Part shown: positions 17,420 to 62,188 of the stretch, piece by piece
How positions within the stretch are numbered: position 1 is the first letter of the stretch
Layout of the letters: each line of letters begins with the position of its first letter
Source of the DNA: Erysipelotrichaceae bacterium
GTDB taxonomy: Bacteria > Bacillota_I > Bacilli_A > Erysipelotrichales > Erysipelotrichaceae
Direction of reading: 5' to 3'
Assembly: GCA_017515475.1 (NCBI GenBank)
Contig: JAFWFS010000027.1
Location: 829 to 64,828 of the forward strand
Length of the DNA: 64,000 nt
Notes under the pieces: model-generated
Databases searched by the model: none
Seen by the model: only the letters and a program-made list of their open reading frames with translations
Told to the model about the DNA's origin: nothing
Position numbers and translations under genes: made by a program

Positions 17420-17507
17420 ATAAGAAAGTATAGCTTATTCATACGCTTTTAACAAATTATTTAAATATGCTTTAAAACAAACGATGATTCTTTGATATTA
17501 TATTTAT

Positions 17508-28870: not shown

Positions 28871-28871
28871 C

Positions 28872-30479
28872 ATGAACAAAACTGTTAAAAAATACATTGA
28901 ATTATTTAAAAAGCATTCGGACTTAATCGGATATATCGCTTTGGCTCTGTTTTTTATCTTTTTGCATCTGAAGATGTATACGGTGATAGATCGACTTATC
29001 GACTCTGATATGTCTAGCGAACTTGTTCTGGCAAGGATCCTGGCATCAGAGAAGGTTTTGATTACGAAAAGCTGGTTTTATTCCAGTGAAATCAGAATTC
29101 TGAATACCAATCTTGTATTTGCACCTCTTTTCCTGATTACGAACAACTGGCATCTAGTCAGGATGATTGGAATGGCGATACTGAATATAATCCTGTTTAT
29201 CACTTTTGCTTATCTCGCAAAACAGTTAAGTATTAGGCATATTCCATGGATTGGTTTTCTGATCCTGGGATGTGTTTCCAAAGATTATTTCCTATTTGTA
29301 ACAATGGGATCGTTCTATGTTCCGCATTTTGCGATTTCTTTTATCTCTATAGGACTGATCATTGGTTTCTTTAAGGATGAGAGGAAGAATAGGAAGATAC
29401 TAAAACTGATTATTCTATTCGCATTGGCGTTTGCGGCAGGACTTGAAGGTATGAGATTAGTATCGATTACTTATCTGCCTTTGGTTCTGACTGCTATGTT
29501 GAGCTGTTTCATCAGCGAACTGGACGAGCTGAAAGAAGGCAGGTTCCGGTTGAAAGAACGGACCGTAATGCTGACGGCGGTATGCGCTTTAGGCTTTGTA
29601 TTCTCCTATGCGGGTGCCTATGTCAATTCAAACATACTTCCTGCTTTGGGATACTCCTACAAGATGGATGGTACGGATCTATATTATTCCGGTTTTGATT
29701 TTGAATCATTAGGGCAGGTCATTGACGGATGGATTGATGTGCTCGGTTATCAAAGCGACAACATGCCTGTATTCATGCCAACACAGTTGATTCTTAAACC
29801 GCTGTTTGCCTTGTTCTTCATTATCTTGTGCTGGGCAGTAATTGATATTCTTAAATATAAAGAGAAATACGATTTCTATGAGAGATTTATGAACCTGTAT
29901 TTCCTGATTGCCGCTCTGGTTATCAGTGCGCTGTTTGTTTTTACAACGACAGCTTATGTAAACCGTTATCTCTTGCCGGTTTCGGTTTTCTCCGTCTTTA
30001 CTGTCGGCATCTTCTTCTCTCATTACCGTATCGAATGGCAAAAATGGGGAATGCTGTCACTGATTGTCGTATTTATAGTAGTCAATACCAGATTCCAGAT
30101 CCATTATCAGCGAGATAATAACTGCTATACGGACGACAGTTTATTTGCCGCTGAGCAGACTATTCTTGCTAATGATTGCTTTAGCGGTTACACAATTGAT
30201 CACTGGAACGGTCATAATCTGTTTACGGAATTGACTGACGGCAAGATTGAAACTTGGAGACTAAATCAAAACGGTCTTAAAAGTATTAGCACATGGCTGC
30301 AGGCGAAGGATCATCAGACAAAAAAGCCTTCAGGCAAAGTATTTCTGCTTCTGCTGCAGGAGGAAAAAGAACTGGTTCATTTCAATGAAGATGTCAGCAG
30401 CTACATCCGTTATGAAGACAATGAAAGAATCCTATACATTTTTGACAATTATGAACAACTAAAAGGATTCATGGAATAA
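28872..30479 (+). CDS. Large polytopic membrane protein of unknown function (same apparent family as 13305..14903)
   Basis: 535 aa. It starts 1 nt after the previous stop. The loop after TM1 reads DSDMSSELVLARIL. It has many TM segments and a soluble tail of about 120 aa. Confidence 0.55.
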   Translation: MNKTVKKYIELFKKHSDLIGYIALALFFIFLHLKMYTVIDRLIDSDMSSELVLARILASEKVLITKSWFYSSEIRILNTNLVFAPLFLITNNWHLVRMIGMAILNIILFITFAYLAKQLSIRHIPWIGFLILGCVSKDYFLFVTMGSFYVPHFAISFISIGLIIGFFKDERKNRKILKLIILFALAFAAGLEGMRLVSITYLPLVLTAMLSCFISELDELKEGRFRLKERTVMLTAVCALGFVFSYAGAYVNSNILPALGYSYKMDGTDLYYSGFDFESLGQVIDGWIDVLGYQSDNMPVFMPTQLILKPLFALFFIILCWAVIDILKYKEKYDFYERFMNLYFLIAALVISALFVFTTTAYVNRYLLPVSVFSVFTVGIFFSHYRIEWQKWGMLSLIVVFIVVNTRFQIHYQRDNNCYTDDSLFAAEQTILANDCFSGYTIDHWNGHNLFTELTDGKIETWRLNQNGLKSISTWLQAKDHQTKKPSGKVFLLLLQEEKELVHFNEDVSSYIRYEDNERILYIFDNYEQLKGFME

Positions 30480-30499
30480 ACCGCTGAAAGGCGGTTTTT
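30478..30499 (+). terminator. Rho-independent terminator separating the membrane-protein run from the kds operon
   Basis: aaaccgc-tgaaag-gcggttt followed by tt, overlapping the stop codon of the preceding gene. Confidence 0.7.
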
Positions 30500-30530
30500 G
30501 TATGTAAAGATAATATCGTTTATAATAGGA

Positions 30531-31280
30531 ATGATGAAAAAGATAGCACTGATCCCTTCCAGGTACGGTTCAACCAGATTTCCTGGAAAACCCCTGGCTT
30601 TGATCAAGGGAAAGCCGATGATTCAATGGGTCGTAGAAAACATCAGGCAGTGTCCTGAAGTCGACGATGTTTATGTTGCGACCGACGACAGACGCATCTT
30701 TGATGCCGTAGAAGCTTTCGGCGGCAAGGCCCTGATGACTTCCGACAAGCATACCTGCGGTACGGACAGACTGGCGGAATGCGCCCGGATCCTGAACCTG
30801 GATGACGAGGACATTATCCTGAATATTCAGGGCGATGAGCCGACTTTCAGAAAAGAAATGGTAGAAGACCTGCTTTCGATCTTTGAGGATGAAAGCGTCT
30901 ATTTCGGCACTCTGAAAGTAGAGATTACCGATGAGAAGGAACTGAACAATCCGAATGCGGTAAAAGTAATCAACGATTTTAATGGCAATGCGATCTATTT
31001 CTCAAGATATACCATTCCGTATGTCAGGGACGAGAAAAACAGAAACATCGTAAAGCACTACAAGCACATCGGCGCTTACGGATACAAGAAATGGTTCCTG
31101 ATGAAGTATAGTGCGATGGAAAAATCGCCTCTGGAGATCTCCGAATCTCTGGAGCAGCTTCGGGCCATCGAAAACGGATATCAGATCAGGGTAAAAGAAA
31201 CGAAATACCAGACGGTCGGCGTGGATACGCCGGATCAGATACAAGAAGTCGAAAGACTGATGGAGAAAATATATGGCTAA
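30531..31280 (+). CDS. kdsB: 3-deoxy-manno-octulosonate cytidylyltransferase (CMP-Kdo synthetase)
   Basis: Motifs include [81 protein letters not shown] and VGVDTPDQ. The start was set at the internal ATG at 30531 because the track ORF from 30498 runs into the terminator. Confidence 0.9.
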
Positions 31281-32049
31281 GTTTATCCTTATTGCCGGAC
31301 CGTGCGTCATCGAATCGGAAGAACTGTGTCTGCAGGTGGCAAGCAAAGTAAAAGAAATCGCTGAAAGACTGGATCTGGATTATTATTTCAAGTCTTCTTT
31401 TGATAAAGCAAACCGTACTTCGATCTATTCCTATAGAGGCCCGGGTATTGAAGAGGGACTGAGGATTTTGAAGAAAGTCAAAGATGAAGTAGGCGTAAAA
31501 GTAACGACCGATATCCATGAACCGTGGCAGGCGGCCAAAGCGGCGGAAGTCTGCGACATGCTGCAGATCCCGGCATTTCTGTGCCGTCAGACCGATCTGC
31601 TGAAAGCGGCGGGAGAGACGGGGAAACTGATCAATGTCAAGAAAGGGCAGTTCCTGGCTCCTTGGGACATGAAGAATGTCGTAACCAAGCTTGAAGAGAT
31701 CGGATGCAAGAATTTTATGCTTTGTGAAAGAGGAAGTTCGTTCGGTTACAATACACTGGTTGTCGACATGTCGGGAATTTATGAGATGAAGAAGTTCGGA
31801 TATCCGGTCGTATTCGATGCGACCCACTCCGTACAGAAACCGGGCGGAACGGGAACGGCAACCGGTGGAAACCGGGAATATGTGGAACCTCTGGCGAAAG
31901 CGGCGATCGCAGCCGGAGCTGACGCTCTGTTCTTTGAAGTACATCCGAATCCGGACACAGCCAAATCCGATGGTCCGAACATGGTCAGGCTGGACGAGTT
32001 TGAAGAACTGCTGAAGAGAGTCATTAAAGTGTACGATGCCGTTCATTAG
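31273..32049 (+). CDS. kdsA: 3-deoxy-8-phosphooctulonate synthase (Kdo-8-P synthase)
   Basis: 258 aa. Motifs include [71 protein letters not shown] and [11 protein letters not shown]. It overlaps kdsB by 8 nt. Confidence 0.93.
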
Positions 32050-32058
32050 AGGATTAAG

Positions 32059-33024
32059 ATGGATAGATTAAATGAAGCGAAGAAAGTATTCGATATCGAA
32101 ATAGAAGCTCTACAGAAAACCAGAGACGTTTTGGGTGACGACTTTATTGGCATACTCAACGAGATATCTTCCTGCCAAGGGAAAGTCATCCTGACCGGGA
32201 TGGGGAAGCCGGGACATATTGCCGAAAAACTGGCTGCAACTTTTTCTAGTTTGGGCACGCCTTCTTTCTACCTGCATCCTGCTGAAGCGATGCATGGAGA
32301 TCTAGGAATGGTTTCGAAAAACGATGTCGTTATCGCCATCAGTTACAGCGGTGAATCCAACGAGATCATCGAGATTCTGCCGGCTATCAGACTGATCGGT
32401 GCAAAGCTGATTGCCATCACCGGAAACAGAAATTCCACATTGGCTAAGGCCAGTGATCTAGTGCAGGAACTTCCGGAATTCGAAGAAGCCTGCCACCTTG
32501 GTCTGGCACCTACCTCTTCTACAACAGTTGAACTGGTCTATGGCGATGCATTGGCGGTCGTGGCATCGGAAATGTACGACTTTAAGGATGTCGACTTCGG
32601 CAAACTGCATCCAGCCGGAGCGCTGGGCAAGAAGCTGATCCTGAAGGTCGAAGACTGCATGGCAAAGAACGAAGATCTGCCGAAGATCCATGTGGATTCT
32701 CTACTGGTGGACGCAATCAAGGAAATGACCAAGAAAGGTCTTGGCGTCGTCTGCATGGTCAATGATAACGGGATACTAAAAGGCATCCTGACCGACGGCG
32801 ATTTGAGAAGAGTCATTGAAAAGAGGGTAGACATCTATTCCGAATCGGTCAGAAACGTCATGACACCGGATCCGAAACGTACCACAAAAGACAAGTTGGC
32901 GGTAGAAGCCCTGAAGTTCATCCGCAGCAAGAACATCAACAACCTTCCGGTCGTAGATGAAGAAAACAAACTCATCGGTGTCGTCGACTGGAGACAGATC
33001 GTCAAGGCAGGAATCGTTGCATAA
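32059..33024 (+). CDS. kdsD: Arabinose-5-phosphate isomerase (KdsD/KpsF/GutQ family; SIS plus tandem CBS)
   Basis: 321 aa. The SIS motifs are GKVILTGMGKPGHIAEKLAATFSSLGTPSFYLHPAEAMHGDLG and ISYSGES.E. The C-terminus has two CBS repeats (VMTPDP...LPVVDEENKLIGVV). Confidence 0.9.
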   Translation: MDRLNEAKKVFDIEIEALQKTRDVLGDDFIGILNEISSCQGKVILTGMGKPGHIAEKLAATFSSLGTPSFYLHPAEAMHGDLGMVSKNDVVIAISYSGESNEIIEILPAIRLIGAKLIAITGNRNSTLAKASDLVQELPEFEEACHLGLAPTSSTTVELVYGDALAVVASEMYDFKDVDFGKLHPAGALGKKLILKVEDCMAKNEDLPKIHVDSLLVDAIKEMTKKGLGVVCMVNDNGILKGILTDGDLRRVIEKRVDIYSESVRNVMTPDPKRTTKDKLAVEALKFIRSKNINNLPVVDEENKLIGVVDWRQIVKAGIVA

Positions 33025-33025
33025 T

Positions 33026-33934
33026 ATGGATTTAGAAAAGATCAAAGAGCTTAGCGATGAAGTATATCGCTATATTAGAGATACGGATATGAAAAGTGTT
33101 CCGTTAGGAAGACACTTTTTTCATAATCATATCTATGCCAACGTCGAGGAATATGCGACTAAAAGAAGGCAAGATGCCCGTTTTGAATCGCATAGAAAAT
33201 ACATAGACATCCAGTACATCATTTCCGGTTCAGAGAAGATCATCGTCGATGATGTCAAGGAACTGGAAGTCATAGAGAAGTACGCTCCGGAAAGGGATAT
33301 TGCCTTTTATTATGATCGGGGTAAGGGGAAGGAATACGAACTTAAGGAGGGGGATTTCCTGATTCTCTATCCTGAAGAAGGGCACATGCCTTGTATCAGC
33401 ATCAAGGAAGAAGATCCGAAGCACGTTAGAAAGATGGTCTTTAAAATCCCATATATTCATACTAAAAAGATCAAAGCTCTGGTCATGGATGTGGATGGCA
33501 CATTGACCGATGGAAAGATCTATATGGGCAACGATGGAGAAGCGATGAAAGCTTTTGACATCAAAGACGGATACGGGATCGCCAACTATCTTCCGAAAAA
33601 AGGAATCATCCCGATCATTATTACCGCCAGAGAATCTAGAATTGTGGAGAATCGGGCAAGAGAACTGAAAATCGCTCATCTTTATCAGGGAGTGAAGGAT
33701 AAGACTCAGAAACTTCAGGAAGTGCTGAATGATCTTGACATGTCGTTATCTGAAGCGGTTTATGTTGGCGATGACGACAATGACCTGGAATGCTTCGAAT
33801 TGGTAAAGAAGAACGGCGGACTTGCTGCATGTCCTTTGAATGCTTCGGAAAGAACGCTGGCAGAAGCGGATTTCATCTCTTTGTATAGAGGAGGAGATGG
33901 GGCAGTCAGGGAATTGATTGAATGGATAAAATAG
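33026..33934 (+). CDS. kdsC: Fusion protein: YhcH/YjgK/YiaL (DUF386) cupin domain plus KdsC-type HAD Kdo-8-P phosphatase
   Basis: 302 aa counting from the ATG at 33026. Residues 1 to about 147 carry HRKYIDIQYIISGSEKI and FLILYPEEGHMP, which are YhcH-family hallmarks. Residues from about 148 to 302 carry LVMDVDGTLTDG, DIKDGYGI, YVGDDDNDLE and GGDGAVRE, the KdsC subfamily HAD motifs. Confidence 0.8.
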   Translation: MDLEKIKELSDEVYRYIRDTDMKSVPLGRHFFHNHIYANVEEYATKRRQDARFESHRKYIDIQYIISGSEKIIVDDVKELEVIEKYAPERDIAFYYDRGKGKEYELKEGDFLILYPEEGHMPCISIKEEDPKHVRKMVFKIPYIHTKKIKALVMDVDGTLTDGKIYMGNDGEAMKAFDIKDGYGIANYLPKKGIIPIIITARESRIVENRARELKIAHLYQGVKDKTQKLQEVLNDLDMSLSEAVYVGDDDNDLECFELVKKNGGLAACPLNASERTLAEADFISLYRGGDGAVRELIEWIK

Positions 33935-33987
33935 TTCCTATTGTGCTTTTGTTGCAACTTTATGTGAAAAAAAGAAAGATATAAAGA

Positions 33988-34944
33988 ATGAAGAACCCTC
34001 TAGTTTCTGTGTTACTACCGGTCTATAACCGGGAAAGAGTGAATAAGTGTATTGATTCTGTTTTGGCTCAGTCTTTTACTGACTTTGAATTGTTGATTAT
34101 TGATAATGCATCAACTGATCATACGGTTGATGTGATTAGAACTTACAAAGACAAAAGGATTAGACTGGTAATCAATGAAAAAAACATCGGCCAGACCGGC
34201 TCTTTGAATAAAGGCCTTGATCTTGCCAAAGGAAAATACATTGCCAGAATCGATTCCGATGATTTAATGCTTGAAAACAGGCTAAAGATGCAGGTTGCAT
34301 ACATGGAAGAACATCCTGAATGCGGTTTCTGCGGTTCAATGATCAGAAACATCACGGAAGATGATGTGATATCAAAGCCTTTGAATCTATGTGTATCGGA
34401 TGAAGGACTACGCCTGTTTCAAGGCGTTAGCAGCTGTATTTATCATCCGGCTGTCATGTACCGTACGGAAATACTGCATGACAATGGAATTTACTATGAT
34501 ACAACACTGAAGATCGCCGAAGACTATGAAATCTGGGATAGGCTTCTTAAGGTTACAAAGGGATACAATATTCCTGAAGTTCTTACTTTATACAGAGTCG
34601 GCGATAATAAGGATAGCGTCAGGTTTAGGGACGTTAAATCGGAAGAGTATTTTGAAATCAGAACAAGGATCTGTAAAGAAGACATGCGGATGAAATATGC
34701 TTTAGAGAGTATAAAGTATGAAAAAAAGAAAAAGAAAACGCTCCTTGACTGTTATCGGATATACAGATGCTTAAATAGATACCTCAATGACAACATGTCA
34801 ACCGGCCATTCTGACTATACTAGTCTGCGGTCCTGCGTCTATTCCCGGATCTATATGTCCTGTGCTTTGGAAAACGAAGCCGCATATGCCGTGTTGTTAC
34901 AAAAGCTTTTTAGTTTTTATAGTAAAATGAAATATGGTGATTAA
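33988..34944 (+). CDS. GT2 family glycosyltransferase
   Basis: 318 aa. Motifs include VSVLLPVYNRE, LIIDNASTDHT and ARIDSDDLM (DxD). Confidence 0.85.
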   Translation: MKNPLVSVLLPVYNRERVNKCIDSVLAQSFTDFELLIIDNASTDHTVDVIRTYKDKRIRLVINEKNIGQTGSLNKGLDLAKGKYIARIDSDDLMLENRLKMQVAYMEEHPECGFCGSMIRNITEDDVISKPLNLCVSDEGLRLFQGVSSCIYHPAVMYRTEILHDNGIYYDTTLKIAEDYEIWDRLLKVTKGYNIPEVLTLYRVGDNKDSVRFRDVKSEEYFEIRTRICKEDMRMKYALESIKYEKKKKKTLLDCYRIYRCLNRYLNDNMSTGHSDYTSLRSCVYSRIYMSCALENEAAYAVLLQKLFSFYSKMKYGD

Positions 34945-37816: not shown

Positions 37817-38379
37817 TACAGAAATTCAGCTTTATTGAGACCCCCTTAAAAGGAGCGTTTATAATCGATCCATTCTATTCCTCGGATCATAGAGGAGGAT
37901 TTATAAAGGATTACAATATCGATGTTTTCAGACAGAATGGAATTGACCACGAACTGAAAGAAGTTTTTTATACTGTTTCCTATAAAGGCGTGATCAGAGC
38001 AATTCATTTTCAGTTGGAACATCAGCAGGCAAAACTGGTTAGATGTGTTAAAGGGAAAATCTATGACGTGATCGTTGATCTGCGTAAAGATTCTGATACC
38101 TTTGGTAAATGGACAGGATATTACCTGAGTGAAGAAAACAGAAAAGAATTGTATATTCCTGAATACTTTGGACACGGATATTTGGTTTTGGAGGACTCAA
38201 TCGTTTCCTATAAATGTGGTGAAGTCTTTTATGCGGATGGAGACAGCGGGATCATGTACAACGACCCGGATATTGCAATAGGCTGGCCATATGATGAGAT
38301 CGGTGGAATAGAGAACCTGATTATCAGTGATAAAGACAGGAATCTAATGTCCTTTCAGGATTACTGCGCAAATGAATAA
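37813..38379 (+). CDS. RmlC-family cupin, NDP-4-keto-6-deoxyhexose 3,5-epimerase-like
   Basis: 188 aa. Motifs include ETPLKGAFIIDPF...DHRGGFIK, RAIHFQ....QAKLVRCVKGKIYDVIVDLR, YIPEYFGHGY and SYKC. It overlaps the upstream aminotransferase by 4 nt. Confidence 0.8.
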   Translation: MIQKFSFIETPLKGAFIIDPFYSSDHRGGFIKDYNIDVFRQNGIDHELKEVFYTVSYKGVIRAIHFQLEHQQAKLVRCVKGKIYDVIVDLRKDSDTFGKWTGYYLSEENRKELYIPEYFGHGYLVLEDSIVSYKCGEVFYADGDSGIMYNDPDIAIGWPYDEIGGIENLIISDKDRNLMSFQDYCANE

Positions 38380-39778
38380 AACAAAAAAGGGATACAGCGT
38401 ATTAAAGGCGATATCATGGTATGCAGTCGGTAACGTTTTTGTTAAGAGCATATCCTTTTTTGTATTGCCCCTTTTCAGCAATCTGATGTCGACTGCCGAT
38501 TATGGCGTCTATACGATATTTACGTCAAACGCCGCTCTGATTGATTCCATTATCATTTTTGGATTAGCTCCGACTATCCGCATGGCAAAATACGATAATG
38601 ATACCGATTATGAACTATATACCTCAACCATTGTCGTCATACCGATTCTTCTGGTTCTTTTATTGGCACTTGTAAGCAATGTCTATATGCTGTTCAATCC
38701 GGTTTTGATGTCTTTGAATCGAACGGTATGGAACTGGATGTTGTTTTACTGTGCTACCAATGTGATCTGCATCATTCTTTCTAATCGGTTCGTCCTTGAT
38801 GGGAGATACAAGGCATACTTTATTTATCTTCTGATCAATACCCTCATTGCAATTGGATCGTTTCTATTGCTTGCCAAATTTGTCTTTCTCGAAAATACCT
38901 ATATGGCGCGGATTGTTGGCCAGTCTGCAGGAAATTTCTTAAGCATTCTCTTCTTTGTATGCACAATTGGCTATAAAGGAATCAGTCCGGGCTATCTGAA
39001 GAAAGGAGTTGTTTGGGGTGCTCCGTTGGTGATTCATTCTTTTATGATTTCGTTGTTTGGCCAGATGGATACTCAGCTGATTAACGTTTTTTCTGAGTTT
39101 TCCGAGCTTGGAGTATATGGCATGGCCACAACACTTGGTTTAGTACCGGCAACCCTGGAAGCGACTTTCGAAAGTGCGTGGAGTCCATGGTTTTTCAATA
39201 AAATGAATGTTGGAGATACGGAAAAGATTCGGGAAACAAACAACACGTACTTCACGATTTTTGCTGTAATACTCGGAGAATTCATGCTGATACTGCCTGA
39301 ACTGGTACGTTTTCTTAATCGGTCCTACTGGGATTGCGTCTTCTATCTGCTTCCGATTACTATCAACAGTTTTATTGAACTGATCTATCTGGTACCGTTA
39401 AACATCCAGTATTATTACAAAAACACAAAAAATATCATGTTTGCGACAGTGATTGCAACTTTACTTGATGCCTTGATGGTCGTATTGTTCATACAGCTGT
39501 ATGGTTTTTACGGCGCTGTTTACGCCAAGACAATCTCCAAGATTGCTCTGGTTGCTATTCACGACTATTCTGCGAAGAAACTGGATCAAAACAACTACTT
39601 CAGCAGTAAGCTTTTTGTCCTGTTGCTTCTAATACTGTTCGCAATAGATGCCATTGTCGTGCTTTTTACCGATTTCGCCGCACTGAGACTTTTCCTGTTT
39701 GCGGCCATCGGCATAGTTGCCCTGACATTTACGATCAGAAAAAGAAAAGAACTACTACAGATGTTTAATGGAGGATAA
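38372..39778 (+). CDS. wzx: Wzx-type oligosaccharide flippase (MOP superfamily, polysaccharide biosynthesis protein)
   Basis: 468 aa with about 12-14 hydrophobic spans. The N-terminus SWYAVGNVFVKSISFFVLPLFSNLMSTADYGVYTIF is typical of the Polysacc_synt family. Confidence 0.8.
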   Translation: MNKTKKGYSVLKAISWYAVGNVFVKSISFFVLPLFSNLMSTADYGVYTIFTSNAALIDSIIIFGLAPTIRMAKYDNDTDYELYTSTIVVIPILLVLLLALVSNVYMLFNPVLMSLNRTVWNWMLFYCATNVICIILSNRFVLDGRYKAYFIYLLINTLIAIGSFLLLAKFVFLENTYMARIVGQSAGNFLSILFFVCTIGYKGISPGYLKKGVVWGAPLVIHSFMISLFGQMDTQLINVFSEFSELGVYGMATTLGLVPATLEATFESAWSPWFFNKMNVGDTEKIRETNNTYFTIFAVILGEFMLILPELVRFLNRSYWDCVFYLLPITINSFIELIYLVPLNIQYYYKNTKNIMFATVIATLLDALMVVLFIQLYGFYGAVYAKTISKIALVAIHDYSAKKLDQNNYFSSKLFVLLLLILFAIDAIVVLFTDFAALRLFLFAAIGIVALTFTIRKRKELLQMFNGG

Positions 39779-40849
39779 ATGAAAACTGCCATTGTTTGTA
39801 ACACGCCTTTACAGGTTATGAATGCGCTAAATATCGTAATCAATGATGTAGAATGCTGTAAAAACGACTGCGATCTATATCTGATTATGAATTTTCGTGA
39901 TTCGGACAGAATAGCTGATCGTGTGGAAACAACCGAACTATTTAGACACGTTTTCCGTTTCAGATCTACAGGTGAAAAGATCACTTCGTTTATAGATCTG
40001 TTAAGTTCTCGAAAGATTCTATCTACGTATGAGTTTTCTGACAGATCATTCATGGATATGCGCTATGACAATCTGTTTGTTTCTGACCGCAACCTGCTTG
40101 GTGTTGCATTAAACTATATTAGCAGATGTAGAAATGTTTATGTCTTTGATGACGGTATCGCCACCTATAGCGGGAACAGCATCTCTGATCCTTCAAATTA
40201 CCGATATCCTTTCCTGAATCGTCTATTTAGAAGCGATGTTCTTTCCTATAAGATCCGAAAGCTTTTTGTCAACAACAAAGAATTCTGCCGGTCACAGATT
40301 TCTGATCACATTGAACAGCTTCCTTTACTTGGCAAAAAGAATCCCGTTTTTGAAGTACTGATGAGAGTTTTTGATTTCAATGTTTCAAGTGAAATAGCGA
40401 CAAAAAAAGTAATAGTTCTAGAACAGCCTTTAGATAAAAAAGAGAACTACAACCAAAAGAAATTCAAAGAAATACTTGATGAAGCATCCGTGGATACATC
40501 TGATACGCTGGTTAGACTTCATCCTGTACAGAAAGACATAGAATATGGCGATTATCGGATTGATCACATCAATAATCTATGGGAATTAGAATGTATCAAG
40601 AGCATAAGCAACGAACACACACTAATCAGTTTTTATTCTTCCGCACAGTTTTCTCCAAAACTGATTGCTGGGAAAGAACCCTACGTTGTTTTCTTGTATA
40701 AGCTCTTTCTAAGCCGTTACGACAGCAGAGAATGTCAGATGTTTGAGAAGATGGTTAATGAATTCAAAGAAAGCTATGAAGATGACGGCAAGATATTTGT
40801 TCCAGAGAACATTGATGAATTGAAAGAAATAATTAAAAAAAGAGGATGA
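39779..40849 (+). CDS. Bacterial sialyltransferase-like glycosyltransferase (GT52-like; carries DDG and HP motifs)
   Basis: 356 aa. The N-terminus MKTAIVCNTPLQVMNALNIV resembles the GT52 start. F-D-D-G lies at 40145-40156. VIVLEQPL precedes R-L-H-P at 40514-40525, with a later FYSSAQFS segment. The order and spacing parallel the Neisseria Lst blocks as I recall them (FDDGTGN, ILLGSP, APHPRQ, FFSGAA). This is recognition by eye only. Confidence 0.6.
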   Translation: MKTAIVCNTPLQVMNALNIVINDVECCKNDCDLYLIMNFRDSDRIADRVETTELFRHVFRFRSTGEKITSFIDLLSSRKILSTYEFSDRSFMDMRYDNLFVSDRNLLGVALNYISRCRNVYVFDDGIATYSGNSISDPSNYRYPFLNRLFRSDVLSYKIRKLFVNNKEFCRSQISDHIEQLPLLGKKNPVFEVLMRVFDFNVSSEIATKKVIVLEQPLDKKENYNQKKFKEILDEASVDTSDTLVRLHPVQKDIEYGDYRIDHINNLWELECIKSISNEHTLISFYSSAQFSPKLIAGKEPYVVFLYKLFLSRYDSRECQMFEKMVNEFKESYEDDGKIFVPENIDELKEIIKKRG

Positions 40850-45448: not shown

Positions 45449-45805
45449 ATGAATAATCTGCAGTTGTCATTACTCGCTGTTTCCGTATTGGTTCTAATAT
45501 TTGTGTTAAGGAACATCATTAAGAACCGGATGAATATCGGTTATGCCATGGTATGGATCATGTGGGCTATTGGAATGGTCATTATTTCCCTTTTCCCGCA
45601 GATCGTTGCTAAGGTAGCCAGACTTCTGGGAATTCAGACGCAGTCCAATGCCGTTTTCCTGATAACGATCTTTCTTCTGTATTGCCTGACTTTCTATCTT
45701 TATCTCAGGATCAGCAGGCATAACGAAGATATCGTCAACCTGAATTACGAGATAGCGTCTTTACGCAAAAAACTGGAAGAACTGGAGAACGCCGGCAGGA
45801 AATGA
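45449..45805 (+). CDS. Small 4-TM membrane protein, DUF2304-like
   Basis: About 118 aa from the ATG at 45449, which has an aggag 8 nt upstream. It has hydrophobic helices followed by an amphipathic, coiled C-terminal tail (NLNYEIASLRKKLEELE). Its position between a GT2 and a DUF2142-like protein matches a triad I recall as recurrent. Confidence 0.6.
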   Translation: MNNLQLSLLAVSVLVLIFVLRNIIKNRMNIGYAMVWIMWAIGMVIISLFPQIVAKVARLLGIQTQSNAVFLITIFLLYCLTFYLYLRISRHNEDIVNLNYEIASLRKKLEELENAGRK

Positions 45806-47841
45806 AGACGGTTATGGAAAGAATAAGCAGTAATTACAAAAAGAACAGAATCGTTCTGCTTGTTTTTTCTTTTTTGTGGATTGCTGCCGTTACAGTTACG
45901 CTTTTAGGTTACAGGAATACGATGGGAAAGAAATCTTACGGCAATTCTGACAGAGAGTTTACACTGGAAATCAATAAAGATACCGTCATTTCTCAAACCT
46001 TGAAAGTTGAAGAGGGAACAGATGCGGTTTCTGTGCTGATGGTGACCTATGCGAGAAGAAACAAAGGAACCCTGAATATCCGAGTGACAGATGACTCAGG
46101 AAAGAAAGTATACGCAGACAAATCCGTTCCGGTTTCCCATATTCAGGATAATGCTTTTTTGACGGTCAGTTTAAATGAAACGTTGCATAACCAGAAGATC
46201 GTTGTACGGCTTTCTTCCGATTGTAAGGGGGGAGAAGGAATCAATGGAGAAGCTCCTGGCGTTTACTGTTCAACATATAATGATTTTCAAGGTGAACCGT
46301 TTACAGTAAATGGAATTGAAAATGAAGGAAGTCTTTGCATCCGTTATCTGGTTCCGGATGAACATATGGAACAGTTCTATCGGATTTCTGTTGCTAGTTC
46401 CATAATTCTTCTAACAATAATGATGATTGTTCTTCTTTTACTGGAGCCGAAATATGAAGTCTTTTTTGCCGGCCTGGCTCTAGCTTTAGGCGTTGTTTTC
46501 ATGTTTATTATTACACCTATGTCAGTACCGGATGAAAAGACGCATTATGAAAGATCTTTGCAGCTTTCCAACAGGATCATTTTTAGAAAAGGAAATACAG
46601 TAGAAACGACTTATTTGGACTATGCTGGTTTTTATGGACATCATAACAATTCCGGGTCTTATGAAAAACTGTTGAATGAATTCAGTTTTCCTGCAAAGAA
46701 TCAGGACGAAATAAAAGATCTGAACAGAATACCGAAATACTGTTATTTAGGATACTATGTCCCACAGGCGATTGGAATTGCTACTGGCAGGCTGTTTGGT
46801 CTGAATATGCTTAAGACATTCTATTTGGGACGTTTTACAAATCTGCTATTCTATGTTCTATGCATCTTTGTAGCTGTAAGAAAAACTCCGGTACATAAAA
46901 CTCTTTTCGGTATCCTCGCTTCAATGCCAATTTTTATTCAGCAGGCTTCATCTTATTCCTATGACGGTTTTATCTTTGGCCTGACTTTTGTTGTTGCTGC
47001 TTATTTTCTAAAATGGTTTTTTGTAGATGAAGATATCACTGTTTTTGAATTTGCCGTTGCTTTTGTAGCAAATCAGCTTCTTGCTCCGGCAAAATCCGTT
47101 TATTGTGTATTTTCTTTTCTTTACTGGTTTATTCCGGAAAAAAGATTCGGAACCCGTTTAAAGAAACTCGTGATCTGCACTTTGATTTGTTTTTATCCGC
47201 TTAAGATTTTATACGAAGAAATATGGAAATACAGGATAAAGGTTCATATCCAAAGAATTTTCGGATTGGCGTTTTCTAATCCGTCAGATCTTCTGCTGCT
47301 GCCTGCGGCATCAGGGAAAACCGGTCTTGTTTCGGATTGGGTCGCACCTTTAAATGAGCCTTATACCTTTACATATGTTCTCCAGCATCCAATGGAAACG
47401 ATACACCTGTTCCTTTATACGATCCGTTACAGCATTAAACTGTGGTTCTATGGATCAATAGGAAGAACAATGTCGGGTTTGAGCTTGATTCTGCCGTTAA
47501 GACTGGTGCAGAGTTTTCCGTTGCTGCTTTTGATCTGTTCACTGAGAAAAGAAGAGCATGTTGAACCTATTTGGCTAAAAGCGTTATTTGCTGTTTTATG
47601 TATTGTCAGCGCCATGATGACGCTTTTTGGCATGCTACTGGGATGGACCAGTACACAAAGTGATATGATCGAAGGAATACAGGGAAGATACTTTTCCCCA
47701 TTGCTTCCTTACTTTTTCCCAATATTTAACAATGGCAGAATAACGATTTCCGAAAAAGCCGACCGTTATTTGATTTTTACACATATCATTCTGATGTTTA
47801 TTACAATCGTCTATATTCTGTCCTATACGTTTGTTAATTGA
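45802..47841 (+). CDS. Large polytopic membrane protein, DUF2142-like (predicted GT-C-type transferase)
   Basis: 679 aa. TM1 is followed by a soluble, probably beta-rich insert of about 170 aa and then at least 10 TM segments. The motif MSVPDEKTHYERS follows the second TM, matching the PDE..H signature I associate with DUF2142. It overlaps the upstream gene by 4 nt. Confidence 0.55.
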   Translation: MKTVMERISSNYKKNRIVLLVFSFLWIAAVTVTLLGYRNTMGKKSYGNSDREFTLEINKDTVISQTLKVEEGTDAVSVLMVTYARRNKGTLNIRVTDDSGKKVYADKSVPVSHIQDNAFLTVSLNETLHNQKIVVRLSSDCKGGEGINGEAPGVYCSTYNDFQGEPFTVNGIENEGSLCIRYLVPDEHMEQFYRISVASSIILLTIMMIVLLLLEPKYEVFFAGLALALGVVFMFIITPMSVPDEKTHYERSLQLSNRIIFRKGNTVETTYLDYAGFYGHHNNSGSYEKLLNEFSFPAKNQDEIKDLNRIPKYCYLGYYVPQAIGIATGRLFGLNMLKTFYLGRFTNLLFYVLCIFVAVRKTPVHKTLFGILASMPIFIQQASSYSYDGFIFGLTFVVAAYFLKWFFVDEDITVFEFAVAFVANQLLAPAKSVYCVFSFLYWFIPEKRFGTRLKKLVICTLICFYPLKILYEEIWKYRIKVHIQRIFGLAFSNPSDLLLLPAASGKTGLVSDWVAPLNEPYTFTYVLQHPMETIHLFLYTIRYSIKLWFYGSIGRTMSGLSLILPLRLVQSFPLLLLICSLRKEEHVEPIWLKALFAVLCIVSAMMTLFGMLLGWTSTQSDMIEGIQGRYFSPLLPYFFPIFNNGRITISEKADRYLIFTHIILMFITIVYILSYTFVN

Positions 47842-47855
47842 TAAAGGAAGACCGG

Positions 47856-48956
47856 ATGAAAGCTGTAGCTCTGACCTGTTTTGAATCCAACGAGGAACGT
47901 GTCCGTTTTGTCTGTGAAGCCTGTCGTATGAAGGGTTATGAGACAAGTGTGGTCACTTCCGATTTTTCTCATGCCAGAAAGCAAAAAAGAAAAACCGTTC
48001 CAGATGATTATCGGGCAATCGATACCATTCCTTATCAGAAAAATCTATCCATCGCACGCATGTATTCACATCGTAAATTTGCCAAGGATGCGTTTAAATA
48101 TATTCAAGAACTGAAACCCGATCTAATCTGGCTGATGACTCCTGCCAATTCACTAATTAAAGAAGCTGATCGTTATAAGAAAAAAAATCCATCCGTAAAA
48201 ATCGTCATTGATATGATTGACATGTGGCCAGAATCACTGCCTTTCAGTTTCAGCAAGGATTTATTTCCTTTCGCCATATGGAAAAAGATCAGAAAGGATC
48301 ATCTGTCATGTGCCGACTATCTGGTGAGCGAATGCAATCTGTATCAGGATATTCTAAAAAACGAATACAACGGTCCGATGAAGACAATCTACTGGTCCCG
48401 TGACAGCAAGGCCGTAAAAGAAAAGGCAATTCTTCCTAATGACAGGCTTTCCCTATGCTACATCGGTTCCATCAACAATATCATAGACATTGACAGGATC
48501 GCTGAACTAATCGGAAATTGCGATGCGCCGGTTATTCTGCACATAATAGGTGACGGAGAAAACAAAGACAGAATGATCAATACAATGGATAAGATCTGCG
48601 AAGTCGTCTACCATGGCGTGATACACGACGAGAAAGAAAAAAGCGAAATCTTTAGAAATTGCCATGCCGGAATAAATGTTTATAAGGAAGGACTTTATAT
48701 TGGCCTGACTGTCAAGTGTATCGATTATTTTGAGCATGGTCTTCCTGTCATCAGCAACATCAAAGGCGATACCTGGAGGCTGGTAGAGAATTACCATGCT
48801 GGGATAAATGTGGATGATAAGACAGCGATTCATTGTAGTGAGATAATCGATTTTAGAGAAAACAACGGCAATATATATCGGCTTTTTGAAGAAAACTTCA
48901 CTAAAAAGATTTTTATTAAAAACTGTCAGGAAGTTCTGGATGAGGTCATGAAATGA
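47856..48956 (+). CDS. GT-B fold glycosyltransferase (GT4-like; in the RgpA position of the rhamnan block)
   Basis: About 366 aa from the ATG at 47856, which has an aaggaag SD upstream. The C-terminal domain carries LCYIGSINN...LHIIGDGENKD...IDYFEHGLPVISN. Confidence 0.65.
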   Translation: MKAVALTCFESNEERVRFVCEACRMKGYETSVVTSDFSHARKQKRKTVPDDYRAIDTIPYQKNLSIARMYSHRKFAKDAFKYIQELKPDLIWLMTPANSLIKEADRYKKKNPSVKIVIDMIDMWPESLPFSFSKDLFPFAIWKKIRKDHLSCADYLVSECNLYQDILKNEYNGPMKTIYWSRDSKAVKEKAILPNDRLSLCYIGSINNIIDIDRIAELIGNCDAPVILHIIGDGENKDRMINTMDKICEVVYHGVIHDEKEKSEIFRNCHAGINVYKEGLYIGLTVKCIDYFEHGLPVISNIKGDTWRLVENYHAGINVDDKTAIHCSEIIDFRENNGNIYRLFEENFTKKIFIKNCQEVLDEVMK

Positions 48957-49864
48957 AACTGATTGTTTTGTTATCCACTTATAACGGTGAGAAATATCTT
49001 AAAGCACAGCTGGATTCGCTTTTGCAGCAGGATTTGCGACCTGATAAGATCCTGGTAAGAGATGACGGATCGAAGGATGATACCGTTGCTATACTAGAGG
49101 ATTATTGTTCAAAATACAGCTTTATTCGGTACTTCTGCGGTCCGAACAAAGGACCGGCAAAATCATTCTGGGAACTGATCTGCAATTGTGAAGAAGCCGA
49201 TTATTATGCTTTGTGCGATCAGGATGATGTCTGGTTCAAAGACAAGCTTTTCGTTGCCGTAGAGCGTTTAGAAAAAGAAGACAATCAGAAGCCACTATTG
49301 TATTGCAGTAGGTACACCTTAACAGATGCGCAGCTGAATCCAATCAATTCCGATATTTCATCACTGTATGGTTATTCCGATTTTCCGCACTCTTTGGTCT
49401 ATCACACCGCGCCGGGATGTACTTTTGTTTTCAATCACGAAGCCAGAAAACAGATCATCAAATACGATCTCGATCAGGAATACTGTCTGATTCATGACGC
49501 AATCATCCATAAAATCGTCTGCATGTTCGGAAAGATGATCCTTGATTCTGATTCCCACATGTACTACCGTCAGCACGGAGACAACGAGATCGGCATGGAC
49601 GCCAATGCTTTAAGGGTGTTTATCGGCAGAATAAACCGTTTCTTAAATGGCAAGATCAGGAATTACCGAAGCAATACTGCCAAGTCCCTGCTGAAGGTTT
49701 ACGGGCAAGAGTGTTCCAAGGAGGACAAAAGGCTGCTGGAAATGCTTGCCGGCTACCGGGACAGCAAAGAGCTGAAAAAGCAGCTGTTAAAAGAAAAGAG
49801 TTTCAGGACGAATACCATCAATGATCTGTTTTTCAAGATTCTGGTATTCGTAAACTATATTTAA
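48953..49864 (+). CDS. GT2 glycosyltransferase, rhamnosyltransferase-like (RgpB/WbbL-like)
   Basis: 303 aa. Motifs include MKLIVLLSTYNGEKYLKAQLDSLLQQ, ILVRDDGSKDDT and LCDQDDVW. This N-terminal pattern is common in rhamnosyltransferases of rhamnan and O-antigen loci. Confidence 0.7.
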   Translation: MKLIVLLSTYNGEKYLKAQLDSLLQQDLRPDKILVRDDGSKDDTVAILEDYCSKYSFIRYFCGPNKGPAKSFWELICNCEEADYYALCDQDDVWFKDKLFVAVERLEKEDNQKPLLYCSRYTLTDAQLNPINSDISSLYGYSDFPHSLVYHTAPGCTFVFNHEARKQIIKYDLDQEYCLIHDAIIHKIVCMFGKMILDSDSHMYYRQHGDNEIGMDANALRVFIGRINRFLNGKIRNYRSNTAKSLLKVYGQECSKEDKRLLEMLAGYRDSKELKKQLLKEKSFRTNTINDLFFKILVFVNYI

Positions 49865-49894
49865 ATAGGCTATAATGGTTAGGTAGGTTTAAAT

Positions 49895-50908
49895 ATGAAA
49901 GAAATAAACAGAAATAAAAAGACAGAAAACGAAAAAGCGCCAATCCTTTATCTGGTCGTTCCTTGTTTTAATGAAGAAGAAGTGATCGAAAAAAGCGCAG
50001 GAATCATGCTAAAGAAACTGCAGTCTCTGGAGAAACAGAAAGTCATTTCCAAAGACAGCAAGGTTTTTTTCGTTAACGACGGAAGCAAAGATGCGACAAA
50101 AGAGATTCTGATCTCTCTGGTAGAGAAAAACAGAGAGTTTGCCGTTTTGAACTTTACGACCAACTACGGGCATCAGAACGCGATTTATGCCGGAATGATC
50201 ACCGCAAAGGATTACGCGGATATCGTGGTAACGATCGATGCCGATCTGCAGCAGGACATTGAAGCACTGGATCGTTTCATAGCGGCCTATCAGGCAGGCA
50301 ATGATGTTGTATACGGTGTTAGAAACGACCGAAATACGGATGGTGCATTCAAGAAGTTCACTGCAACCATGTACTACCGTTTCATGCATCTGCTTGGCTG
50401 CAAGATTATCTCCAACAGCGCGGACTACCGTCTGCTTTCCAAGAAAGCCCTGAACATCCTTGCGGAATACAAGGAATCCAATCTTTTCTTAAGAGGCCTG
50501 ATTCCTTCCATCGGACTGAATTCCGATATCGTCTATTTCGACGTCAAGGAAAGAGAAGCCGGATCTTCGAAGTACACTTTCAGCAAGATGGCGAATCTGG
50601 CGATCGACGGGATCACTTCCTTTTCGATCGTTCCTCTGCATCTGATCTGCATTACCGGGTTCATTATTGTTGCCTTAAGCGGCATCATGCTGGTGGTCAG
50701 CCTGGTTGAGTGGGCACAGGGAAAGAACGTGCCGGGCTATACGACGCTGCTGGTAGTCATGCTGATCGCGACCGGACTGATCATGCTTTCACTGGGTATT
50801 ATCGGTGAGTATATCGCCAAGATCTACACCGAAGTGAAGGGAAGACCGCGTTATACGATCGATTCTATTATCTGGAACGAATCTACAAAAAATGGAAAAA
50901 AGAAATAA
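49895..50908 (+). CDS. GtrB/ArnC/GacI-type GT2 (polyprenyl-phosphate sugar synthase with 2 C-terminal TM helices)
   Basis: 337 aa. Motifs include YLVVPCFNEEEVI, FVNDGSKDAT, TTNYGHQNA, TIDADLQQD, two TM helices and GIIGEYIAKIY...GRPRYTI. Its G+C is visibly higher than that of its neighbours. Confidence 0.85.
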   Translation: MKEINRNKKTENEKAPILYLVVPCFNEEEVIEKSAGIMLKKLQSLEKQKVISKDSKVFFVNDGSKDATKEILISLVEKNREFAVLNFTTNYGHQNAIYAGMITAKDYADIVVTIDADLQQDIEALDRFIAAYQAGNDVVYGVRNDRNTDGAFKKFTATMYYRFMHLLGCKIISNSADYRLLSKKALNILAEYKESNLFLRGLIPSIGLNSDIVYFDVKEREAGSSKYTFSKMANLAIDGITSFSIVPLHLICITGFIIVALSGIMLVVSLVEWAQGKNVPGYTTLLVVMLIATGLIMLSLGIIGEYIAKIYTEVKGRPRYTIDSIIWNESTKNGKKK

Positions 50909-51827: not shown

Positions 51828-51839
51828 AATTGGATTAGA

Positions 51840-52820: not shown

Positions 52821-52828
52821 GAGCTGAT

Positions 52829-55344: not shown

Positions 55345-55359
55345 GCTATAATAAAAATT

Positions 55360-57552: not shown

Positions 57553-57554
57553 AA

Positions 57555-60147: not shown

Positions 60148-60184
60148 CAGATAATTACAGTATTGGAATCAACTATATAAAAAT

Positions 60185-62187: not shown

Positions 62188-62188
62188 A

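Follow-up and report, generated by a model that had tools for sequence, protein, structure and literature searches.

A four-gene cassette for CMP-Kdo

[quoted passage not shown] The genes kdsB, kdsA, kdsD and a fusion gene that includes kdsC lie tightly packed on the plus strand, with kdsB and kdsA overlapping by 8 nt (31273-31280), a 9-nt gap between kdsA and kdsD and a single nucleotide between kdsD and the fusion (Table 1). This is the gene set, and the overlap, that a first-pass annotation of the window had described, and all four products do score at or above curated family cutoffs.

KdsB reaches 309 bits with NF003952 (cutoff 193) and 236 bits with the equivalog model TIGR00466 (cutoff 155), the PseF and GlmU models staying far under their own cutoffs, and it is identical to MBR2534204. 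KdsA likewise exceeds its equivalog cutoffs (TIGR01362, 402 bits with a cutoff of 314; NF003543, 418 bits with a cutoff of 242) and separates from the 3-deoxy-D-arabino-heptulosonate 7-phosphate (DAHP) synthases, whose models give 138-153 bits and thus fall well under their cutoffs. Its closest match in the PDB is Kdo-8-phosphate synthase from Aquifex aeolicus (1FWN, 314 bits). The N-terminus aligns with MEKFLVIAGPC of 1FWN, and the GPC (Cys11) and DATHSVQ (His) motifs are kept, placing the window enzyme in the metal-dependent class; the acidic Glu and Asp positions of 1FWN are aligned and conserved as well, and these we take to be the remaining metal ligands, in the numbering of the A. aeolicus structures. 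For KdsD, TIGR00393 (321 bits, cutoff 204), PF01380 (99 bits) and PF00571 in two stretches establish family membership. Since the KdsD and GutQ equivalog models remain below cutoff (331 vs 505 and 293 vs 481 bits, respectively), we place it at the level of the KpsF/GutQ family only. Taken singly, then, none of the enzymes stands out within its family, and three of the four already go by the names of Kdo-pathway enzymes at NCBI (KdsA, KdsB, KpsF/GutQ), the fusion being listed just as a YhcH/YjgK/YiaL family protein. Its start had been put at position 32957 in the first-pass annotation; we reject the resulting 325-aa reading frame, which has no exact record in any database, in favour of the ATG at 33026, which yields the 302-aa form that is both an exact NCBI protein and the product of gene callers.

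As for its edges, the cassette is preceded by a terminator-like hairpin (AAACCGC-TGAA-GCGGTTT followed by a T run), visible in the sequence and recovered by a terminator scan at 30478-30497, practically where it had been annotated before (30478-30499), which directly follows the stop codon of the upstream gene. Between hairpin and kdsB (30498-30526) lies a perfect TATAAT (30521-30526), 17 nt after TTGTAT. It could be the cassette's own promoter; it would then leave almost no leader before the ATG at 30531 or 30534, and a consensus promoter scan omitted it because the -35 element matches in three of six positions only. Alignment with a sister locus (L005) delimits the cassette at the nucleotide level: identity is 0.55-0.70 up to position 30500, leaps from about 0.6 to 0.98 at about 30500, remains at 0.91-0.98 over 30501-33750, drops to 0.74 at 33751-34000 and to 0.3-0.4 beyond 34000. 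The high-identity block thus begins at the hairpin, its 5' edge, and ends with the fusion gene, and on this comparison the kds cassette reads as a discrete module. Where glycan loci vary with serotype, it is usual to find a conserved sugar-supply block beside assembly genes that diverge fast.

The base composition of the cassette also sets it apart, albeit less so than proposed. A count of 37 G+C in the 60-nt line at 31561, on which the idea of a G+C island had been founded, is correct and the rise is real. It is modest, however, and leaves the cassette intermediate between the AT-rich variable genes and the host core: G+C amounts to 0.465 (kdsB), 0.49 (kdsA), 0.48 (kdsD) and 0.42 (fusion), and G+C at third codon positions (GC3) to 0.58, 0.54, 0.56 and 0.46, compared with 0.366-0.391 (GC3, 0.417-0.442) in neighbouring genes, about 0.395 (GC3, 0.34-0.57) in the rest of the locus and 0.517 (GC3, 0.62-0.70) in the core genes at 1-10 kb. 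Relative to L005, from which the genes differ by a synonymous divergence of 0.10-0.24, the ratio of nonsynonymous to synonymous change (dN/dS) is 0.07 for kdsB, 0 for kdsA (no nonsynonymous change), 0.03 for kdsD and 0.15 for the fusion. In the comparison with L094, a sister locus farther removed, synonymous sites are saturated, yet the proteins are still 58-86% identical. Owing to these low dN/dS values and the retention of the proteins over the longer distance, we regard the kds genes as intact, under purifying selection and in use.

Nor is the cassette confined to the window. KdsA of the window type forms more than 120 clusters at 82-99% identity from gut and rumen metagenomes, and a sister locus with 82-86% protein identity has the same neighbours. 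A metagenome-assembled genome (MAG) of Dorea keeps the same order kdsB-kdsA-kdsD-kdsC, at 68%, 76%, 64% and 56% identity, respectively. In Lachnospiraceae and Clostridia MAGs, KdsA proteins 70-76% identical to ours are encoded near Wzy/Wzx, ATP-binding cassette exporters of the ABC-2 type, TagF-like and MptE-like (PF01973) proteins; in two further loci (L092, L096), kds genes sit in classical Wzx/Wzy loci with Bac_transf, and a KdsA from Synergistaceae shows 55% identity.

The DUF386-KdsC fusion and a sialyltransferase-like protein

In the fusion protein, a DUF386 domain of the YhcH type precedes the Kdo-8-phosphate phosphatase KdsC. The KdsC half, which meets TIGR01670 with 132 bits (cutoff 107), aligns with KdsC structures from E. 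coli and other sources (best PDB match 7T35, 107 bits), and its haloacid dehalogenase motifs I and IV (DVDGTLTDG and GDDxND) are invariant across ten relatives, all of which identifies it as a KdsC of the HAD-IIIA YrbI family. It scores below cutoff with the E. coli-type equivalog NF007019 (143 vs 208 bits) and with a model for the 9-phosphate phosphatase of 2-keto-3-deoxynononic acid (113 vs 180). The N-terminal half passes the DUF386 thresholds (PF04074, 127 bits with a cutoff of 26.5; TIGR00022, 100 bits with a cutoff of 45.5) and matches HI0227 from Haemophilus (1JOP, 55 bits). Kept in it are the motifs ESHxKYxDxQ and YPxxxH, with ESH-KYIDIQ and YPEEGH of the fusion aligning to ELH-EYLDVQ and YPYEPH of HI0227, and we take these motifs shared with YhcH to be a putative metal site. 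Among the best 120 matches to the fusion protein, the two domains are arranged in either order in proteins of about 300 aa: the DUF386-KdsC order of the window is also found in records labelled Bacteroidales and Treponema, and the KdsC-DUF386 order in proteins labelled Lachnospiraceae and Xylanibacter ruminicola. That two independent fusion orders exist argues for a functional link between KdsC and DUF386. The GTDB representative genomes hold no close relative of the fusion protein, their best match being 58% identical over half of it.

What could such a link be for? KdsB uses Kdo as the beta-pyranose, a minor form in solution, and the KdsB step is rate-limiting. YhcH (NanQ), which alone among DUF386 proteins has been characterised, is a Zn-dependent anomerase or 'openase' of N-acetylneuraminic acid (Neu5Ac; Kentache 2021, PMC8141875), and Neu5Ac and Kdo are chemically related 2-keto-3-deoxy acids. 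Taken together, this suggests that the fused DUF386 domain may be a Kdo anomerase, passing the product of KdsC on to KdsB. The window domain thus would share with YhcH/NanQ the fold family, the two motifs and the substrate class (2-keto-3-deoxy ulosonic acids), yet differ from it in being fused to a biosynthetic phosphatase outside a catabolic nan operon, with Kdo as its predicted substrate and KdsB, rather than an aldolase, as its predicted client. Indeed, the window scans gave no Pfam match suggestive of nanA, nanK or nanE, and the fusion is part of no sialic acid operon. In the literature, which our searches covered incompletely, we found no paper linking DUF386/YhcH with KdsC or Kdo and no description of the fusion.

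If CMP-Kdo is made, a transferase is needed to use it, and our best candidate is a soluble protein whose gene (39779-40849) is abutted, without gap, by the last base of a gene for a Wzx-type flippase. Direct and profile searches of the protein against PDB sequences found nothing, and its sialyltransferase kinship is shown only by fold comparison and by the Pfam matches of its relatives. An exhaustive search gave about 1200 representatives of the family; 15 of 36 aligned relatives match the polysialyltransferase family PF07388 (best E 2e-11) and 5 of the 36 match PF07922 (glycosyltransferase family GT52; best E 2e-9). Invariant or nearly so in the 36-sequence alignment are DDG (124-126), RxHP (246-249), WE, S287 and EP, and D/E-D/E-G and HP motifs are known to mark bacterial sialyltransferases, where they have a role in catalysis and CMP-sialic acid binding. 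An AlphaFold (AF2) model built from this alignment has a mean confidence (pLDDT) of 94.8 (a single-sequence prediction reached 36 and was not used), and Foldseek ranks the GT38 polysialyltransferase 5WCN, solved with CDP (E 7e-10, TM-score 0.56), and the Neisseria GT52 enzyme 2YK4 (E 4e-8) above generic GT-B enzymes. Judged by this model and the motifs, the protein is a predicted GT-B enzyme of the GT38/GT52 sialyltransferase-like kind. It differs from both families in that identity is only about 14%, every family threshold is missed, many relatives are fused to a polytopic flippase-like domain and the only nearby CMP-sugar pathway makes Kdo, not sialic acid.

Genomic context points the same way. 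The gene shares an operon-like run with the cassette, no CMP-sugar synthetase other than KdsB is encoded in the window, and among 97 fetched loci the family occurs in KdsC-carrying ones only (5/30, against 0/55 controls; Fisher p = 0.004), namely in the window type, L094, L096/97, L020 and L013. Furthermore, in 29 of 30 long representatives (among others P0461 and P0466) the domain follows a polytopic N-terminal half of about 450-500 aa with 7-15 predicted transmembrane (TM) segments, and in one, P0458, this half matches the Wzx of the window itself (E 1.6e-82), which makes the protein a Wzx-transferase fusion. Fusion to a flippase-like domain points to lipid-linked glycan assembly. Such a flippase-transferase fusion did not surface in our literature searches, none of which was aimed at that architecture. 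Hence, we propose the 39779-40849 protein as the Kdo transferase, its donor CMP-Kdo being suggested by the genes around it.

Other candidates deserve mention. A GT2 glycosyltransferase encoded directly downstream of the fusion, with GT-A enzymes such as chondroitin synthase as PDB matches, has a homologue in L094 (52% identity), the position being taken by an acyltransferase in L005; it is part of the conserved gene set and a second candidate Kdo transferase. The two polytopic proteins encoded directly upstream of the cassette (27041-30479), devoid of any family match besides a trace of Wzy_C (E 0.16), have homologues that precede the cassette in L005 (49%, 55%) and in L094 (51%, 59%, 50%); the pair accompanies the cassette but differs strongly in sequence from strain to strain. 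We rejected them as unlikely Kdo transferases because GT-C and Wzy enzymes use lipid-linked donors and CMP-Kdo is cytoplasmic. MptE-like proteins are encoded among the kds genes of two Lachnospiraceae and Dorea loci (L014, 4215-5072, 7730-8554 and 10540-12750; L012, 2098-2916). The PF01973 domain is, we presume, that of Maf-type ulosonic acid transferases and if so, these proteins may be an alternative Kdo transferase family; as a clue to the window transferase they were dropped, phmmer finding no homologue in the window. In L094, genes for an NTP_transf_3 (244 aa) and a CofD-family protein (589 aa) lie between the transferase and GT2 genes (16153-18676), a pair we read as CofC/CofD-like, which hints at a phospho-lactyl- or phosphoglyceryl-type glycan substituent.

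The host and the locus around the cassette

To whom the cassette belongs was settled by look-up of exact sequences. All ten window proteins looked up are in the collection and nine of them (the products of gmd, manC and the four kds genes, the ROK kinase, an AsnC protein and an aminotransferase) are labelled as from one NCBI MAG, 'Erysipelotrichaceae bacterium', with accessions of the exact matches spanning MBR2534179 to MBR2534207. Named relatives of GpsA at 79-99% identity are, without exception, from Erysipelotrichaceae MAGs. The housekeeping genes, which the first-pass annotation had called Clostridia-type, therefore match Erysipelotrichaceae instead. An identical KdsA is present on 23 contigs from several samples (the labels XIEF21 and WILK20 look to us like ruminant or rumen studies), and since the same arrangement was assembled independently in several samples, the contig is not an assembly chimera.

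Erysipelotrichaceae are Bacillota of the class Erysipelotrichia. In agreement with the literature we found, the only Bacillota known to have outer membranes are Negativicutes, Halanaerobiales and Limnochordia. With its proteins matching a family outside these diderm groups, the host is a monoderm Bacillota, and the possibility that the window came from a diderm Firmicute, raised earlier as what would overturn a wall-polymer reading, is not borne out. Pfam scans covered 56 window open reading frames of at least 150 aa across the 64 kb and the called genes of about 20 kb of flanks. Among the 56 frames there is no match to LpxA/B/C/D/K, WaaA (Glycos_transf_N) or Capsule_synth (KpsC/S, PF05159), bearing out the earlier impression that lpx- and waaA-like genes are missing from the 64 kb, and the roughly 84 kb of window plus flanks contain no lpx, waaA, lpt, bam or outer-membrane gene, so that we find no lipopolysaccharide (LPS) system here.

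What the window and its flanks do hold are genes for polysaccharides, sugar nucleotides and Gram-positive-type walls (Table 1). A G+C-rich block of core sugar metabolism gives way to an AT-rich polysaccharide super-locus, which consists of a variable half with many GT2 enzymes and a rhamnan-type module with DUF2142, GT1, GT2, YdjC, a TOD1/MUCI70-like glycosyltransferase, an acyltransferase, RmlA and RmlC. By gene content (RgpF, ABC-2 exporter, RmlA/RmlC, Wzx and GT-C-like proteins), the locus belongs with the Rgp/Epa/Cwps loci.

Table 1. Positions of the kds cassette and of other features in the 64-kb window
Feature	Position	Strand	Size and remarks
Terminator-like hairpin	30478..30497	+	8-bp stem, 4-nt loop, then T run; separates the upstream membrane-protein gene from kdsB
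kdsB, CMP-Kdo synthetase	30531..31280	+	249 aa; PF02348 197 bits
kdsA, Kdo-8-phosphate synthase, metal-dependent class	31273..32049	+	258 aa
kdsD/kpsF, arabinose-5-phosphate isomerase	32059..33024	+	321 aa; SIS and two CBS domains
DUF386(YhcH)-KdsC fusion	33026..33934	+	302 aa; PF04074 127 bits, TIGR01670 132 bits
DUF386/YhcH-type domain	33026-33463	+	N-terminal; fusion residues ~1-146
KdsC Kdo-8-phosphate phosphatase domain		+	C-terminal; fusion residues ~147-302
Sialyltransferase-like GT-B glycosyltransferase, candidate CMP-Kdo-dependent transferase	39779..40849	+	356 aa, soluble; directly after Wzx gene
Wzx-type flippase	38372..39778	+	468 aa, ~10 TM; PF01943, PF13440
GT2 glycosyltransferase	33988..34944	+	318 aa; PF00535 116 bits
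Two polytopic proteins upstream of cassette	27041-28870, 28872-30479	+	609 aa and 535 aa; 11-12 predicted TM each; GT-C-/Wzy-like
All seven polytopic proteins	13305-14903(-), 15884-17419(-), 17508-18983, 20476-22011, 25464-27005, 27041-28870, 28872-30479		~490-610 aa, 9-13 predicted TM
Core sugar metabolism, G+C-rich	1-10 kb		gmd, fcl, manC, ROK kinase, phosphomannomutase, gpsA, transaldolase
IS200/Y1-type transposase gene	10389-10865		at boundary of core block (0.52 G+C) and AT-rich super-locus (~0.39)
Polysaccharide super-locus	11-64 kb
Variable half	13-45 kb		many GT2, two modules for nucleoside diphosphate (NDP)-aminosugars, Wzx, acyltransferases, seven polytopic proteins
Rhamnan-type (Rgp/Epa/Cwps-like) backbone module	45802..62761	+	assigned by Pfam
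ABC-2 permease and ATPase	51840-53587	+	PF01061 and PF00005; in rhamnan module
618-aa soluble protein	53488-55344	+	directly after ABC ATPase; two weak GT-B/GT1-type Pfam segments
RgpF	57555-59207	+	PF05045

Only one of the seven polytopic proteins has a Pfam match (GtrII), and there is one weak NCBIfam match, to a putative glycosyltransferase family of Leptospira. The polytopic PF14264 (GtrII) and PF09913 (DUF2142) proteins we take as GT-C-like, and the seven together make a striking density of likely GT-C/Wzy-like enzymes in one locus. The flippase has a homologue in L094 (42% identity). In the rhamnan module, the 618-aa protein could be a chain-length ruler or terminator; between its GT-B-type segments is a stretch matching a phage scaffolding-protein model, which we take as a possible sign of a coiled coil. 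A phmmer search of this protein against all PDB sequences (E up to 1) gave no match, so that it does not qualify as a GT99 enzyme like WbbB, and the Wzt-like ATPase, at 252 aa, leaves little room for a carbohydrate-binding domain. The idea that Kdo terminates the chain and is read by the ABC transporter, following the WbbB/GT99 model, was unsupported and has been dropped.

Some observations concern the periphery. The sister contigs L089 and L090 have the transposase gene too. A UDP-glucose/GDP-mannose dehydrogenase encoded at the head of the locus (10999-12474, minus strand) carries an N-terminal XRE-type helix-turn-helix (HTH_3, residues 14-67) and is an unusual enzyme-regulator fusion. The upstream flank is central metabolism; in it (L089, 4310-7702) a 979-aa protein with Fucose_pyrophosphorylase and GHMP-kinase domains, which we read as an FKP-like bifunctional fucokinase/GDP-fucose pyrophosphorylase, is encoded with FucU and adjoins gmd and fcl, and it seems that the organism can obtain GDP-fucose by salvage as well as de novo. 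The downstream flank holds a GDPD protein, two Sulfatase-family proteins, RmlB/D-like Pfam matches and a Bac_transf gene. The Sulfatase-family (PF00884) proteins of 609 and 494 aa (L098, 4766-9562), which follow the GDPD protein, are LtaS/GacH-like in our reading and, together with the latter, suggest that the wall polysaccharide is decorated with glycerol phosphate; farther along come VTC, DUF4956 and CotH genes.

In all this, the locus resembles those for rhamnose-containing cell wall polysaccharides (Rha-CWPS) of lactococci, streptococci and enterococci, being bipartite, with an ABC-transporter rhamnan half that includes RgpF and RmlA/C, a variable half with Wzx, glycosyltransferases and polytopic proteins, and the GacH/LtaS-like pair in its flank. 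It differs from them in its Erysipelotrichaceae host, in that Kdo is absent as a term from the Rha-CWPS papers we found and in that neither the initiating enzyme nor a LytR-CpsA-Psr (LCP) ligase was seen in the window.

Where the Kdo may go

We consider it fairly likely that the window encodes a working CMP-Kdo supply cassette which serves a surface polysaccharide of a monoderm, not LPS. KdsD would convert ribulose-5-phosphate to arabinose-5-phosphate, which the metal-dependent KdsA would condense with phosphoenolpyruvate to Kdo-8-phosphate; the KdsC half of the fusion would then take off the phosphate, and the fused YhcH-type domain may speed up ring opening and anomerisation so as to supply KdsB with the minor beta-pyranose form. 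From the resulting short-lived CMP-beta-Kdo, the 39779-40849 enzyme might transfer Kdo, at the cytoplasmic face, onto an undecaprenyl-linked oligosaccharide just before flipping. Wzx would flip the unit, and the polytopic GT-C/Wzy-like proteins would polymerise it or join it to the rhamnan backbone of the 45.8-62.8 kb module, the latter step being proposed by analogy to the dual-chain Rha-CWPS model of lactococci and enterococci. Of the earlier proposal that Kdo is a constituent of a Gram-positive wall or capsular polymer, the monoderm host, the polysaccharide context, the intact and selected cassette and now a sialyltransferase-like enzyme all stand; Kdo itself is still deduced.

Several points weigh against this reading. 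Kdo's presence in the polymer is read from genes, and the survey behind the missing LPS genes spans about 84 kb of the genome, so that lpx, waaA or bamA may be located elsewhere. The window holds neither an initiating phosphoglycosyl transferase nor the LCP ligase mentioned above. Hairpin and conserved-module pattern would also fit a recently exchanged cassette with a different partner transferase. As to the transferase, the window protein itself is without a Pfam or NCBIfam match, it could use as donor a different CMP-nonulosonic acid, made by genes elsewhere in the genome, two loci (L020, L013) carry the family with no KdsA of at least 45% identity seen, and some kds loci are without the family, L012 and L014 having the MptE-like proteins instead. 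As to the anomerase, activity on Kdo would be an extrapolation across the DUF386 family from Neu5Ac, and with 80.6 bits against the NanQ cutoff of 160 (NF040884), the N-terminal part of the fusion is a DUF386 member, not NanQ itself.

How does the cassette compare with known uses of Kdo? Relative to the pathway that leads to WaaA and LPS in E. coli, the window has the same four steps, with all proteins at curated family thresholds, but is without WaaA or a lipid A acceptor, has its KdsC fused to DUF386, a monoderm host and a metal-dependent KdsA (Aquifex-like, Cys11), and holds in one cassette the kds genes that are scattered in E. coli. With the group 2 capsule (kps) loci of E. coli and Neisseria, which have KpsF/KpsU paralogues and the beta-Kdo transferases KpsS/KpsC, it shares dedicated arabinose-5-phosphate isomerase and CMP-Kdo synthetase genes in a polysaccharide locus and Kdo outside LPS. 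The window differs in that export is Wzx-dependent with a separate ABC-2 rhamnan module and the predicted transferase is GT38/52-like, not GT107 or GT99; we found neither a PF05159 match nor a KpsM/T/E/D-like gene in the window Pfam tables, and hence no group 2 capsule system.

Kdo genes in a monoderm have a precedent, which makes the idea less than entirely new. In the Gram-positive Bacillus coahuilensis m2-6, an island of kds genes was noted as unexpected (Gomez-Lunar 2016, PMC4744853) and Hendrickia is likewise a monoderm Bacillota with a complete kds set (PMC13249872); a 2026 survey lists, within Bacillota, only B. coahuilensis and two Hendrickia genomes and interprets the island as a piece of LPS biosynthesis gained by horizontal transfer. 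Like these, the window has its complete set beside glycosyltransferase and membrane-protein genes. The B. coahuilensis island, however, has kpsC, is flanked by insertion sequences, strain-specific and AT-poorer than its genome, whereas the window cassette is without kpsC, carries the DUF386 fusion, is common in a gut clade and resides in a Rha-CWPS-type locus. What is new is this rhamnan-type Erysipelotrichaceae setting, the breadth across gut Bacillota labelled as monoderm, the predicted Kdo anomerase fusion and the candidate transferase family. On the chemical side, we came across no report of Kdo in the wall polymer of a Gram-positive, a negative made weak by our incomplete coverage of the literature.

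Could the cassette be a passenger of this kind, a fragment of LPS biogenesis brought in by recent horizontal transfer and devoid of a host role? Besides the way the B. coahuilensis island has been read, a composition unlike that of the neighbours and the sharp module edges speak for it; dN/dS values of 0-0.15 at the synonymous divergence seen, the many KdsA clusters together with a sister locus that keeps the same neighbours, a G+C content between (rather than outside) those of locus and host core and the retention of all four steps together make it hardly credible in our eyes. Very improbable, too, is an operon that feeds an LPS inner core, be it that the host is a diderm or that the contig is mis-binned or chimeric from a Gram-negative. 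Kdo is, admittedly, overwhelmingly an LPS sugar, records labelled as diderm (Xylanibacter ruminicola, Bacteroidales, Treponema) have DUF386-KdsC fusions too and our gene survey covers part of the genome. In diderm Bacillota, kdsABCD is clustered with lpx and waaA, and none of these, nor any outer-membrane gene, accompanies kds in the window or flanks. What is more, the kds genes form one continuous sequence with core genes that are exact matches to Erysipelotrichaceae, the named GpsA relatives are all from that family, the kds arrangement was recovered again in separate assemblies of several samples, the KdsA proteins of named genomes that are nearest to ours come from Dorea, Lachnospiraceae and Clostridia MAGs and it is established that the diderm Bacillota named above do not include Erysipelotrichia.

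A minor but real chance remains that the pathway is functional and directs Kdo to a loose capsule or exopolysaccharide or to a protein (S-layer, flagellin) rather than to a peptidoglycan-anchored polymer. Sialyltransferase-like and Maf/MptE-like enzymes can glycosylate proteins, and two Gram-positive Maf enzymes put Kdo on flagellin when expressed in E. coli; moreover, the window is without an LCP ligase gene and the kds loci of L092 and L096 resemble classical capsule loci. Against this, no flagellin, S-layer or Maf gene is nearby, the cassette shares one uninterrupted stretch of the same strand with genes for Wzx and GT-C-like proteins and with a rhamnan/ABC module of the kind seen in Rha-CWPS loci, and the flippase-like fusions of nearly all long transferase representatives point to lipid-linked assembly. 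Finally, there is a slim chance that the product is a Kdo derivative or another ulosonic acid (Ko, 8-amino-Kdo, an O-acylated or phosphorylated form), as left open in the first-pass annotation. The locus does have two acyltransferase-3 genes, two DegT aminotransferases and a flavin oxidoreductase, but the aminotransferases adjoin NDP-hexose genes (FdtA, a 4,6-dehydratase, a cupin isomerase), and no KdoO-type dioxygenase or KdnA/KdnB pair was recognised in the Pfam tables, with no dedicated model search made. KdsA and KdsB are Kdo enzymes at equivalog level, KdsD gives the specific C5 precursor and any modification would follow Kdo synthesis.

Coming back to a Kdo supply for a monoderm surface polysaccharide, its wider version is a tentative one: it is possible that Kdo is not for diderms only and that an Erysipelotrichaceae clade of gut and rumen as well as many bacteria labelled Lachnospiraceae or Clostridia routinely build it into wall or capsular glycans, using a DUF386 'Kdo anomerase'-KdsC and new sialyltransferase-like transferases. 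Kdo and kds genes commonly serve to mark Gram-negative LPS, in surveys of envelope evolution, in the inference of pathways from metagenomes, in metabolic click-labelling by Kdo-azide and as antibiotic targets, and the few published kds clusters of monoderm Bacillota have been treated as stray LPS fragments. Our data suggest that kds cassettes look like regular, selected parts of polysaccharide loci in abundant gut and rumen Bacillota labelled as monoderm. If true, Kdo-azide labelling, 'LPS biosynthesis' calls in metagenomes and anti-Kdo reagents would misattribute signal to Gram-negatives. A DUF386 subfamily acting as Kdo anomerase would matter for LPS synthesis in Bacteroidales too, and a new family of CMP-ulosonic acid transferases would be potentially useful in glycoengineering. 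For the bacteria themselves, an acidic eight-carbon sugar would join the chemistry of Gram-positive wall polymers, which would bear on phage receptors, host immunity and serotype variation.

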